A stretch of DNA of 64,000 nucleotides from Halobacteriovoraceae bacterium (GCA_963719505.1 CAVRCF010000001.1:352001-416000), one strand, 5' to 3'. Positions 10,758 to 59,134 are shown, counted from the first letter of the stretch. Notes: generated from the sequence alone by a model not told the origin. Made by a program: numbers and translations.

Positions 10758-11276
10758 GTGACTATGCAAATTAAAAATTTCGAACTCAAAGCCAAATTGA
10801 AAGATCCAGATAAAGTAAAAGATATTCTTCTTGAACTTAATGCTGATTATAAAGGATGTGATGAGCAGTTAGATTCTTATTTTAATGTTCCCAGTGGAAG
10901 ATTAAAACTTAGACAGGGAAATATTGAAAATTCTCTCATTTTTTACAAAAGAGAGGATACAAATAAAGCTAAGGAGTCAGATATCTCCTTTTCTAAAATT
11001 CCTTTTGAATCTGATAATATACTTGATGTTCTCACTCATGCTTTAGGGGTTAAGAAGGTTATAATAAAGAAGAGGGATATATATTTTATCTACCATGTAA
11101 AGTTTCATATCGATTATCTAGAAGGACTGGGCTCTTTTGTTGAAGTAGAAGTTATTGACGATAAAAATGAGTACTCAATTGAACAGATGAAGGAGCTTTG
11201 TCTCTTTTATAAAAACAAACTCGAAATTAGTGATTCTGATTTAATTGATAAGTCTTATTCTGATATGGTTCTATAG
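10758..11276 (+). CDS. CYTH-domain protein (class IV adenylate cyclase-like)
   Basis: NFELKA (ExExK-like), QLDSYF, GRLKLR, KKRDIY, GLGSFVEVE. Confidence 0.9.
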   Translation: MTMQIKNFELKAKLKDPDKVKDILLELNADYKGCDEQLDSYFNVPSGRLKLRQGNIENSLIFYKREDTNKAKESDISFSKIPFESDNILDVLTHALGVKKVIIKKRDIYFIYHVKFHIDYLEGLGSFVEVEVIDDKNEYSIEQMKELCLFYKNKLEISDSDLIDKSYSDMVL

Positions 11277-11343
11277 GACCAGGTTTTTTGGTGGTTCTAT
11301 GGGGGCACTGTCAAAAATGCAAAAAAAATGCCCCGATAGGGGC
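11267..11343. repeat. Three copies of the 14-bp palindromic motif (11267, 11293, 11330)
   Basis: GGTTCTATAGGACC, GGTTCTATGGGGGC, GCCCCGATAGGGGC; same family as the mnmE repeats. Confidence 0.8.
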
Positions 11344-11347
11344 ATTT
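11321..11347 (-). terminator. Intrinsic terminator of the atp F1 operon (possibly bidirectional)
   Basis: AAATGCCCC-GATA-GGGGCATTT hairpin with A8 on + (U tract on -), between convergent CYTH gene and atpC. Confidence 0.8.
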
Positions 11348-11358
11348 AATTTATCTTT

Positions 11359-11769
11359 TTAATTTTGATTACCAAGCTTGAGCCTCATTTTGGCCCTCTC
11401 AAGTTTTCTTCTAAACTTAATAATGTCTACATCTGTAAGAGAAGAGTCACCCTTTAGTCTAGATTCAGCTTTTGCTTTTGCAGCTTTTGCTCTTGCAATA
11501 TCAATTTGATCAGCTGTTTCTGAAGTTGTTGAAAGAACATTTACTTCTTTTTCAATCACTTTTAGTAAGCCAGCTGTCACTGAAAATTTTCTCTCACCAC
11601 TACCAACTTTAGCCGTTAGGATACCAGTTGCTAATTCAGAGATTAAATTTATATGTCCAGGTAGAACATTAATTTCACCATTAACAGTTGGTATTGTAAA
11701 AGAGTCACAATCGAGACCCTTTAAGATAACACCATTTGGAGTGAAAATATTTAATTTAAAGTTACTCAT
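11359..11769 (-). CDS. atpC: ATP synthase epsilon subunit
   Basis: IFTPNG, PTVNGEINVLPGH, IDIARA; follows atpD. Confidence 0.95.
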   Translation of the reverse strand: MSNFKLNIFTPNGVILKGLDCDSFTIPTVNGEINVLPGHINLISELATGILTAKVGSGERKFSVTAGLLKVIEKEVNVLSTTSETADQIDIARAKAAKAKAESRLKGDSSLTDVDIIKFRRKLERAKMRLKLGNQN

Positions 11770-11772
11770 TTT

Positions 11773-56367: not shown

Positions 56368-57219
56368 TTCAACAGCACCTTTATTAAAGTCCAACGTTCT
56401 AATAGGAAATGGTATAGAAATTCCATTATTGTCGTAAGCCTTTTTAAGCTTTTTAATGGCATCGTGTTTAGCTTGCAAGTAAGAGGCGTTGTTAGGATAG
56501 TCTATCCAAAACCTTGCATTGAGATTTATTGAACTGTCTCCGAATTCTTCGAAATAGACTTCAACATCACTTCCAATAATATTTTTAGTTGATTTAAGAG
56601 CTTCTCTTGTAACATCTTCAACTTTGTCGAGATCATCAGAATAACTTACACCGACGTTGAGGATCATTTTTCTTTTTGGAATTGTTGTGTAGTTAATAAA
56701 TGGCTTTGTGAACATATCTTTATTGGGAATGATCACATCCAAACCTTCTATGTCTATTATTTTAGTGACGCGCAAGTTGATCTCAGTTACCTGTCCAAAA
56801 AAATCTTCGATTTTAATGGTATCGCCAATACTATAAGGTTTCCTAAAAGCAATAAGCACTCCAGAAACAAAGTTTGCAGCGATTTCTTGAAAGGCGAAAC
56901 CTAAAGCAAGTCCTATAACTCCGGCACCTGCTAAGATTGAGGCTACTGTTTTTTCAAGGTTGAGAATTTCAAGCGATATAAAAAAGCCGATGATAAATAT
57001 AGAAACCGACAGCATGGAGCTCAATAGGTTTGAGATAACTTGGTTTTTAGTGAGCTTCATAAATGGTTTGTAAGATAGCTTTTTGACCATCTTTGCAACA
57101 AACAGAAAAACAAAAAGAACAACAACACCGACAAGGATATTAGGTATACTTTTAACAATTACTTCGTACCAAGTAATTACTTTATCTGTTAATAAACTCA
57201 CTGGGCTTTTTGCATCCAT
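56344..57219 (-). CDS. mscS: Small-conductance mechanosensitive channel
   Basis: AGAGVIGLALGFAFQ, NFVSG, IPN, FGDSSIN, ISIPFP. Confidence 0.93.
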   Translation of the reverse strand: MDAKSPVSLLTDKVITWYEVIVKSIPNILVGVVVLFVFLFVAKMVKKLSYKPFMKLTKNQVISNLLSSMLSVSIFIIGFFISLEILNLEKTVASILAGAGVIGLALGFAFQEIAANFVSGVLIAFRKPYSIGDTIKIEDFFGQVTEINLRVTKIIDIEGLDVIIPNKDMFTKPFINYTTIPKRKMILNVGVSYSDDLDKVEDVTREALKSTKNIIGSDVEVYFEEFGDSSINLNARFWIDYPNNASYLQAKHDAIKKLKKAYDNNGISIPFPIRTLDFNKGAVELFKNRQV

Positions 57220-57228
57220 TGCTTTCTC

Positions 57229-57972
57229 CTAAAAAAATATCTTAAAATCTTTAATATTAGCTTTTTTCCATTCGCCTTGCACTTTTAAGTCTAGGGCAAA
57301 TTCATCATTATGGGCACCCTCTTTCAAAAGAAGTTCTGAGCACAGGTGTCTAATGACGGATTTATTTGGGTCTATCGTTTTAATCTTGTAGGTCGACTCT
57401 ATATGATTTTTAATAAGGGGATAATGAGTGCATCCTAAAATTAAACCATCGTACTTTTCAAAATCAATGGCCTTAAGCTCTTCATCAATCTCTTTCTGTA
57501 TAGATTCAAAAGGCTTATTTAAAAGCCTCTCAACCACCAAGGCCAATCCCTTTAGTGGATAGATATCAACCCTACCTTCGGGGTCATGCGTCTGTTTTAG
57601 GTAGGAGAATCTTTTTGATCTGAATGTTGAAGTTGTAAGGATAAGAGCGAGTCTTTTTGATTCACTGTGATTGAGGTAGTTAATATAGGGCTCAATACCT
57701 ACAAACTTCATTTCAAACTCTGCTCTTAATTGGTTGATGGTCTCAACTGTTGCCGTATTGCAGGCAATGACAATGGCATTGACATGAGCTTCCATTAGCT
57801 TTTTGACCATCAGTCTCAATCTGACCAGAATGAAGTCCTGCCCTTTTTCGCCGTATGGCACATTGTCATTATCACTTATATAAAAGTATTCAGCGGCTAA
57901 GTTTGAATCGATTAGGTCTTTTAAAATAGAGAATCCACCGATACCTGAATCTAAAATTCCGATTTTTTTCAT
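57229..57972 (-). CDS. murI: Glutamate racemase
   Basis: IGILDSGIGG, PYGEK, ACNTA, LGCTHYP. Confidence 0.95.
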   Translation of the reverse strand: MKKIGILDSGIGGFSILKDLIDSNLAAEYFYISDNDNVPYGEKGQDFILVRLRLMVKKLMEAHVNAIVIACNTATVETINQLRAEFEMKFVGIEPYINYLNHSESKRLALILTTSTFRSKRFSYLKQTHDPEGRVDIYPLKGLALVVERLLNKPFESIQKEIDEELKAIDFEKYDGLILGCTHYPLIKNHIESTYKIKTIDPNKSVIRHLCSELLLKEGAHNDEFALDLKVQGEWKKANIKDFKIFF

Positions 57973-58101
57973 GACATATAATATTTTGCCGAGAACCCTT
58001 TTACAACTCTAACTTATTAAAATTATTAAAAGAAATTTCAGAAAACAATTAAGCTCTTGATATTCTGTTGATTATGGCTTAAAAATATCTCTCAACTAAA
58101 C

Positions 58102-58178
58102 GCACCCTTGGCTCAGCTGGATAGAGCGTCTGACTACGGATCAGAAGGTCGGGAGTTCGAATCTCTCAGGGTGCGCCA
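58102..58178 (+). tRNA. tRNA-Arg(ACG)
   Basis: GCACCCT/AGGGTGC acceptor stem, TCTGA-CTACGGA-TCAGA anticodon arm, CCA. Confidence 0.96.
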
Positions 58179-59134
58179 CTTTTATTCCACTTCTTGTCAT
58201 TTCTAATTGCTTTAAAAAGAAAGTCTATCAGGTAGATATGCCGACGCATTGTTCGATCATAGCGGTGTTTCTTAACAGGATTAAACAGCCCAAAAAGGGA
58301 AAAGATCTGAATGGGATTTTTCTTCACCCAAGCCCAAGACCCAAGTTCTAAAGTAACGGGAATAAAAGTATTTTTGCTAAACTGTGATTTTGAGTGGAGC
58401 TCCAGAGCATAGTCCCATAAGTCGCCATGAGTAGTGTAGGTCAACGACTGGGCTTCAATTTTATAGACGTGATGAGAGTAGGTCTCCTCGAAAATTTTTG
58501 CAAGATTTAAAAACTGCTGTAAAAAAGAAAAAGGCTTTTTAGATTTTGCATAAGGGTACCAAAGTTGGTCGCGAAGGCCAAAGCCGGAGTGAAAATCGAG
58601 TGCAATTGAGCATTGAGATGCAAACATATACTTTTGAACAAAGTCTAAAAGAATTGAGGACTCAACTTCCATCTCAGAGTTCTTTTTACCGCGATACCAT
58701 GGAAGCTTATTAGATATCCGATGACCGCCGACGAGAAATGTAGCTCTCCCCTCAGCATCAATAGGTGCATTTCTCATTAAGTCGACACCATTGATATTAC
58801 TTCGGCTAAAGTTTATTAAACCCCAAGGGTTAACCATTGGAATGCAGACAATACGCGTCGTTTTCAAATGATCGACAAAGTCTAAGTCCCACTCAAGCCT
58901 CGCTTCTAGGATTTGAAGAAACGAAATTAATACCTGACTACCAATCTTCTCTAACCCATGAACACCGCCAAATAGACCTAGCGTAGGATGGGATGGCTCT
59001 TTTGATCCAATAACGAGTCCATGAATCGGTAGTTTATCCGGTCCTATAGAGCCAAGAACTTCAATCTCAACGAGTTCACTATGTGCTTTTTGAAATTGTT
59101 TTAATATTTCGACTTCGGCGTTTAGATTTTTCAT
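58166..59134 (-). CDS. M14-family zinc carboxypeptidase
   Basis: GGVHGLE (HxxE), NINGVDLMRN, LDFHSG, TLELG. Confidence 0.87.
   Translation of the reverse strand: MKNLNAEVEILKQFQKAHSELVEIEVLGSIGPDKLPIHGLVIGSKEPSHPTLGLFGGVHGLEKIGSQVLISFLQILEARLEWDLDFVDHLKTTRIVCIPMVNPWGLINFSRSNINGVDLMRNAPIDAEGRATFLVGGHRISNKLPWYRGKKNSEMEVESSILLDFVQKYMFASQCSIALDFHSGFGLRDQLWYPYAKSKKPFSFLQQFLNLAKIFEETYSHHVYKIEAQSLTYTTHGDLWDYALELHSKSQFSKNTFIPVTLELGSWAWVKKNPIQIFSLFGLFNPVKKHRYDRTMRRHIYLIDFLFKAIRNDKKWNKSGAP
59040..59053. repeat. Isolated copy of the 14-bp palindrome
   Basis: GGTCCTATAGAGCC, exact reverse complement of the 22275 copy. Confidence 0.7.

Follow-up and report, generated by a model that had tools for sequence, protein, structure and literature searches.

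A 16-bp palindrome clustered at the replication origin of Bacteriovoracaceae: a candidate second centromere for ParA2B2

In chromosomal ParABS systems a ParB CTPase and a Walker-type ParA share one operon, and ParB binds an origin-proximal 16-bp palindrome, parS, of consensus tGTTNCACGTGNAACa (PMC3597684); R173 and G201 are described as absolutely conserved in the ParBs that bind it (PMC7383237). Several related systems have been reported: SopABC of the F plasmid, whose SopB reads G2 and G6 of the sopC repeats by R190 and R195 (PMC3177203); Noc of Firmicutes, a ParB paralogue whose specificity code has changed and which has a 16-bp site to itself (NBS) on the main chromosome (PMC7383237, PMC7333895); the Borrelia arrangement, with two centromere-binding proteins on adjacent sites at one origin (PMC9712426); and RacA of Bacillus, with its clustered origin-proximal palindromes, ram (PMC4914108). 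We describe here a 16-bp palindrome, TGGTYCTATAGRACCA, clustered around the origin of a Halobacteriovoraceae bacterium (GCA_963719505.1, genome G000) in a stretch of 64,000 nucleotides spanning that origin (CAVRCF010000001.1, i.e. contig C1, 352001-416000; hereafter the window). We propose, with a probability of roughly 0.6, that it is a second centromere (parS2) serving a second ParA-ParB pair, ParA2B2, on the same chromosome.

The new site is identical to the local canonical parS at 10 of 16 positions, with T1, G2, Y5 and C6 in common; half-site positions 3, 7 and 8 differ and the site fails the parS consensus. The first-pass annotation of the window had called it non-parS, which is right as to the consensus but passes over this kinship. 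ParA2B2 resembles the chromosomal systems by its single operon for a ParB CTPase and a Walker-type ParA, and departs from them in that ParB2 lacks R173, G201 and the ParA-activating peptide LG(R/K)GL, that it is found alongside an intact canonical system, and that its operon stands 0.3-0.6 Mb from the sites. With SopABC it shares a 16-bp palindrome repeated in an array (9 of 16 positions agree with sopC of the F record), 11 of 30 helix-turn-helix (HTH) residues—against 6 of 30 shared with ParB1, the canonical ParB—basic residues where SopB has R190 and R195, and ARV[SG] in an N-terminal peptide; unlike SopABC, it is chromosomal, single copy and apparently vertical in 150/150 genomes, its operon is not beside the centromere, and ParB2 is overall nearer Noc/Spo0J than SopB. 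Noc offers the parallel of a ParB paralogue with a site of its own, but its code is QKKR where ParB2 has K-[S/C/G]-[K/R]-K, ParB2 has a cognate ParA, and the new sites are packed at the origin whereas Noc sites are spread over the chromosome. In Borrelia, as PMC9712426 presents it, ParZ is a non-ParB that took over the sole ParA, while here each system has its own ParA and ParB. The palindromes of RacA differ in sequence and length, and the RacA-like gene found here does not track the motif. ParA2B2/parS2 would be a variant within the ParABS type; it is not a new kind of machine.

A 16-bp palindrome packed around the origin

Ten copies of a 14-bp, GC-edged palindrome, from 11267 to 59040, had been listed in the first-pass annotation, and direct look-up bore out each coordinate. 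The same 14-mer, GGTTCTATAGGACC, stands at 11267 and at the mnmE positions 22233, 22302 and 22329; another, GCCCCGATAGGACC, is common to 12854 in atpD and 22206 in mnmE; and the copies at 59040 and 22275 are exact reverse complements. The contexts (a stop codon, intergenic DNA, unrelated genes) were also as described. The unit itself had to be redrawn: all of the 108 14-mers at 27 family loci, picked via protein search or position, have Y...R flanks, and the real unit is 16 bp with T...A edges (for instance TGGTCCTATAGGACCA), which shifts each start by one (Table 1). Half-site positions T1, G2, C6 and A8 are near-invariant; variant halves exist, e.g. TGCCCC[T/C/G]A.

The window contains 9 matches at no more than 2 mismatches where 0.80 are expected, a number equalled by none of 100 shuffles. 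Over the whole G000 genome the 14-bp pattern is matched 15 times versus 2.5 expected (order-3 Markov) and once for the reversed pattern; the 16-mer fits 13 sites, all on C1, and two remote 14-bp sites do not fit it. By raw abundance in G000 alone the motif has no prominence among degenerate palindromes (rank 13, p ~1e-4, 45,642 half-words seen), and de novo 16-mer scans of G000, dominated by multi-copy repeats, singled out neither the motif nor parS once these were masked. These repeats amount to ~125 kb on several contigs, in several families of 8-10 copies. The signal of the motif arises from clustering and conservation, not from its abundance in G000.

The origin is marked by dnaA, by DnaA boxes and by the GC-skew minimum beside dnaA at C1:381465 (window ~29465, about 29.5 kb). 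An origin bias, as announced by the first-pass annotation, is clear: of the 15 14-bp-pattern sites, 11 are at most 50 kb away from the origin (p=1.7e-6 for 5 of 9 clusters), and the 13 16-bp sites extend from ~230 kb on one side to ~120 kb on the other, with 9 of them no more than 15 kb from dnaA. The same holds in five near-complete family genomes (G006, G087, G057, G067, G041), where 38 of 40 sites are found within 17 kb of dnaA, while five non-family genomes have 0-2 sites each, scattered. Eleven other family genomes, too, have canonical parS in their origin regions.

A tight version of the pattern matches 149 of 150 Bacteriovoracaceae genomes, which agrees with the expectation that relatives would have it; the sole genome without a match, G118, is 85% complete. 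Family genomes mostly give 4-20 strand-hits, where the reversed control gives 0-3 (11 in a single case). The 189 other Bdellovibrionota include 74 with a match, never more than 3, a background level like that of the control. The order contains one further family, represented by G019, in which the canonical ParB is the only one and both the motif and ParB2 are lacking. A search for 12-mer palindromes in 40-kb regions of 10 non-family genomes revealed no comparable array, but it was crude: 5 of the 10 regions had origin genes, and in G000 itself the motif was not ranked by it.

Table 1. Coordinates of the sites, origin markers and genes (window positions, unless prefixed by a contig)
Feature	Position	Strand	Remarks
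16-bp site TGGTTCTATAGGACCA	11266..11281		overlaps the stop codon of CYTH; first of three clustered sites, downstream of atpC
16-bp site TGGTTCTATGGGGGCA	11292..11307		intergenic
16-bp site TGCCCCGATAGGGGCA	11329..11344		intergenic
16-bp site TGCCCCGATAGGACCA	12853..12868		within atpD, read as GPIGA
Main array, five 16-bp sites	22205..22343		starts 22205, 22232, 22274, 22301, 22328; mnmE variable loop
16-bp site CGGTCCTATAGAGCCA	59039..59054		within M14 peptidase gene, read as GSIGP
Further G000 sites	C1:150748, C1:425110, C1:498525		beyond the window
mnmE	21911..23404	-	497 aa; host of main array
parA2-parB2	G000:C1:30706-32345	-	loci L157/L272, beyond the window; proposed binder
parA1-parB1	17605..19361	-	canonical
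Three canonical parS	19448, 21456, 21894 (span 19448..21909)		between new clusters
dnaA	25603..27264	+	origin marker
DnaA boxes	27225-29087		origin marker
wHTH-CC gene	5490..5798	-	102 aa; BldC/Xis-like winged HTH (wHTH) plus coiled coil (CC); rival binder, largely rejected

Selection on DNA in the mnmE loop

The main array of G000 has a spacing of 27/42/27/27 and reads in frame as GPIEP four times and GPIGA once. That the constraint bears on DNA rather than on protein, as the first-pass annotation held, is borne out by codon usage: in 27 family MnmE frames, all of the 93 loop peptides of the form G/A-P/S-I/M-E/G-P/A are encoded by the 16-mer, against 3.1±1.7 after codon resampling (maximum 10 in 2000). 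An earlier count, 519/524, was partly circular, many loci having been chosen by the motif; the count of 93 is free of that bias. The loop bears 1-8 sites in 22 of the 27 frames and the other 5 have no loop peptides; frames without the loop array measure about 435-470 aa. Moreover the two orientations of the motif yield different peptides. The family-wide MnmE repeat is a DNA signal, not a protein motif.

Among the matches listed in a pattern scan, at least 125 loci, arrays are located mostly in the MnmE loop; the scan also picked up repeats in other genes of some scattered genomes unrelated to the family. Other array positions among these matches are downstream of atpC—also in loci L040, L044 and L067—the parB-bactofilin gap, the mnmE-gidA gap and the inside of parB. 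In intergenic arrays the spacing is not triplet, and other reading frames are also used. In three genomes whose MnmE has no loop peptides (G009, G008, G057) the sites stand elsewhere near the origin. The atpD site is found as an identical 14-mer at the corresponding position in G001 and G002. The frequent choice of a tolerant MnmE loop, as in-frame repeats, may be made because the origin region is gene-dense.

Two observations concern the host genes. In one family genome (L121) a seven-site array lies in frame within parB itself. Besides, where MnmE of other families has the NKxD (G4) motif, that of this family reads T-[H/N]-x-D or similar, also where the loop array is lacking; the array comes after this motif.

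ParB2 as candidate binder

G000 has three ParB-domain genes. ParB1 keeps LG(R/K)G, R173 and GHA/GK (R173 and G201 are kept in 10/10 genomes checked) and is predicted, since it keeps these features, to bind canonical parS; ScpB is present alongside intact ParB1, ParA1 and canonical parS. As ParB1 retains the parS code and its own parS sites, we set it aside as the binder of the new site, for which it may be a weak secondary binder. ParB3 is the product of an orphan ParB-CTPase gene (G000:C3:39709-40674; L158/L302) beside a dCMP-deaminase-like gene; its patchy distribution, 96 of 150 family genomes, led to its rejection.

The third, ParB2, was found in 150/150 and 61/61 family genomes and in none of the 189 other Bdellovibrionota (E<=1e-22). 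It is single copy, about 50-87% identical within the family, and adjoined by ParA2 in 34/34 and 15/15 loci. ParA2 has a deviant Walker A, KGGVGKT, and is Soj-like, 35-38% identical to canonical ParAs. ParB2 possesses the CTPase boxes QxR, GERRxRA and ENxxRE plus an HTH domain, and matches TIGR00180 above cut-off; its structure model (pLDDT 79.9) has the ParB/Noc/KorB/SopB fold, with the best Foldseek match (E 1e-12) to Noc. Its best PDB and NCBIfam matches are likewise Noc, the NCBIfam score being 90 bits versus a cut-off of 315. In metagenomes, all ParB2 matches have the helix unchanged, and their DNA-binding domains are 51-89% identical. Among plasmids the best relatives reach ~30% identity; one locus of a viral collection reaches 35%, without the motif. 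Besides, G000 has a third, orphan ParA-like gene (G000:C5:813671-814420), ~30% identical to ParA1 and ParA2; in B. bacteriovorus, two additional ParAs are described that have no ParB next to them (PMC7186360).

The recognition helix of ParB2, SERK..LG.SK[ST]E[VI]HR, and EKYV are invariant. Aligned to Noc, ParB2 has K176 and K203 at the parS-code positions R173 and G201. The helix is thus invariant yet without R173 and G201, and ParB2 is therefore expected to have a conserved site of its own. K176 and R181 align with R190 and R195 of SopB; R181 as the reader of base 3 was considered, and dropped given the SopB contacts reported in PMC3177203. The N-terminus of ParB2 is basic, modelled with low confidence, and bears an invariant F-x-x-R-V-[SG]-K-K that resembles the ARVG stretch of SopB. 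In SopB, the arginine of that stretch is the ParA-activating one.

Half-sites of the motif appear at the parA2 promoter, which is conserved as TTGACG-N17-TAcaaT; in G000 (TTGACG-N17-TACAAT) the half-site TGCCCCTA overlaps the -10 box. Of 129 loci examined 104 were usable, and 47 of these carry an exact half-site in the 250 bp upstream of parA2; in the dereplicated set the figure is 12 of 49. The controls gave a mean of 0.74 and a maximum of 3 of 50 for shuffles, 2/46 downstream, 0 for reversed words, 47/2775 upstream of all long open reading frames (ORFs) of G000, and 3/50 upstream of the wHTH-CC gene. According to the clade, the half-sites stand upstream of the -35, in the spacer or downstream of the -10, split palindromes included, and on a tree of 99 rows their placement changes label no fewer than 10 times. 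Binding to half-sites has been reported for ParBs (PMC5961200). On neither side of parAB2 did a search reveal a further conserved palindrome, the best shared 16-mer half being in 4/106 loci.

ParB2 is probably the protein that binds the 16-bp site, because its range matches that of the motif (150/150 and 149/150 in the family; 0/189 and background in the others), because the geometry of the site is parS/sopC-like (a 16-bp palindrome with near-invariant G2 and C6), and because half-sites are enriched at its own promoter.

Working model and competing explanations

ParB2 dimers would read the site through their own HTH, with K176 and R181 acting as R190 and R195 of SopB and K203 taking the place of G201. 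With CTP, ParB2 would clamp and spread from 3-9 clustered sites into a focus beside that of ParB1-parS, and would stimulate the co-encoded DNA-binding ATPase ParA2, by which the origin would be moved or held; the ParABS biology on which this model draws is described in PMC7333895 and PMC10547168. ParA2B2 would act beside ParB1-parS and SMC-ScpAB, perhaps at a stage of the life cycle when ParB1 is inactive. Bdellovibrio cells that are not replicating are reported to keep ParB away from parS (PMC10547168). A possible step would be the holding of the origin in attack-phase cells, or the spacing of chromosomes in the filament before multiple fission. The promoter half-sites might confer a weak autoregulation on parAB2. 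Taken in its fullest form—two complete orthogonal ParABS at one origin, a centromere in coding DNA that forces the GPIEP repeats on MnmE, and a step of the predatory cycle served by ParA2B2 beyond the canonical system—the proposal seems to us evenly poised.

Several points weigh against a ParA2B2 centromere. The likeness to parS has by itself a chance of ~0.03, and the SopB match of the ParB2 HTH is weak by hhalign (probability 12.7%). The LG(R/K)GL peptide is missing, and the operon, at 0.29-0.63 Mb from dnaA, does not have the layout of a plasmid centromere; in 80/80 metagenome loci the 5 kb around parB2 contain no full site. Neither the helix nor the motif varies across the family, and no ParB2 relative with a nearby site was found outside it. 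The co-distribution of motif and ParB2 amounts to one evolutionary event, which any family-specific core gene would match, and the candidate binders compared besides ParB1 were three, not the whole proteome. As for the promoters, 55 of 99 distinct ones, that of G006 among them, have no core half-site; a graded position-weight-matrix test gave a weak result (p=0.046, with 29/49 scoring above shuffle); and the half-site test was prompted by a visual sighting of the words, in related genomes that are not independent.

ParB2 might well bind the site, and the resulting focus only mark the origin for another job—division-site positioning, pole anchor, cargo or condensin loading—in the manner of MipZ, PadC or Noc systems. 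The intact ParB1, ParA1, canonical parS and ScpB, beside which a second DNA mover may be redundant, speak for it, as do the closeness of ParB2 to Noc (far below the cut-off, certainly), its missing activating peptide and the example of Borrelia, reported to split the ParA and SMC jobs between two origin-bound proteins (PMC9712426). We nevertheless consider it rather unlikely: ParA2 is Soj-like and always co-encoded with ParB2, whose SopB-like N-terminal stretch is invariant. That the site is bound by another family-specific protein, ParB2 having a different target, appears improbable. The range match cannot separate family-specific genes, the comparison was limited to a few candidates and no sites stand beside parAB2; on the other hand, the site has the length and conserved bases of a ParB site, its half-sites are enriched at the parAB2 promoter, and this operon has no other conserved palindrome around it.

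The first-pass annotation had inferred a site for a chromosome-organising dimer analogous to RacA/ram. A DNA-level, origin-proximal site of that kind stands; the analogy largely does not. The wHTH-CC protein would be the binder, in a RacA-like polar anchoring: its architecture is RacA-like (the wHTH matching BldC/Xis with Z 5.9-6.5, plus the coiled coil; the RacA layout is that of PMC4914108), and its gene is single copy, ~6 kb from the nearest array. However the gene is found in 165 of the 189 non-family genomes, which have no motif, and in 119 of 150 family genomes (single-sequence search); it was found neither genome-wide nor beside its usual neighbour in G012, G082, G057 and G085, which all keep the sites (G057 is a single contig, 99% complete); for a fifth genome no locus was obtained. 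In addition, the motif is unlike the ram consensus as given in PMC4914108, and has 16 bp versus 14. For this range mismatch we rejected the gene as binder, and hold RacA-like anchoring to be very unlikely. It is scarcely credible, at last, that the GPIEP/GPMGA repeats are a feature of the MnmE protein or traces of mobile or REP-like elements (repetitive extragenic palindromes), with the other copies due to chance. It is true that a single MnmE loop holds most copies, in frame and with periods of 24/27/30 bp as tandem duplication would give; but all of the 93 peptides use the motif codons, flanking base included, both orientations occur with different peptides, intergenic, in-parB and other-frame arrays exist, and 5 of 27 MnmE frames have no loop peptides, with sites elsewhere near the origin in G009, G008 and G057. 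A mobile or REP element, which the first-pass annotation had named as a possible refutation, does not fit either: flanks are unrelated between copies, sites are confined near the origin, and no Rfam match was obtained.

We found no paper on the motif or on the parA2-parB2 operon in a literature search that did not cover supplements, such as the ATAC-seq/Hi-C data of PMC11789641 or the ParB survey tables of PMC12704722; the text of the former invokes a generic parABS only, and the main text of the latter does not name the Bacteriovoracaceae group. Should a ParA2B2 centromere be true, nature would here provide an example of two ParABS systems at one origin, with a new ParB specificity code and site that would extend the parS/NBS/sopC series for the study of DNA-specificity evolution, and a candidate for the handling of the origin through the non-binary cycle of predatory bacteria. 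An orthogonal ParB-parS pair would also serve as a new locus-labelling tool, and cultured members of the Bacteriovoracaceae exist.

Some features of the neighbourhood deserve mention. The wHTH-CC protein ends in a PxLP tail, has a RacA/ParZ-like layout with no Pfam or NCBIfam match, and is found in 218 of 251 Bdellovibrionota genomes. In the window, atpD, atpG, atpA, dnaN, recF, gyrB and gyrA are broken into short ORFs (11773-15590 and 27759-34069), probably by assembly errors, because in relatives the atp genes and dnaN are unbroken. Finally, a gene of 714 aa (8502-10646, minus strand), with no Pfam match, is conserved in the family downstream of atpC, and motif clusters are often located just upstream of it.

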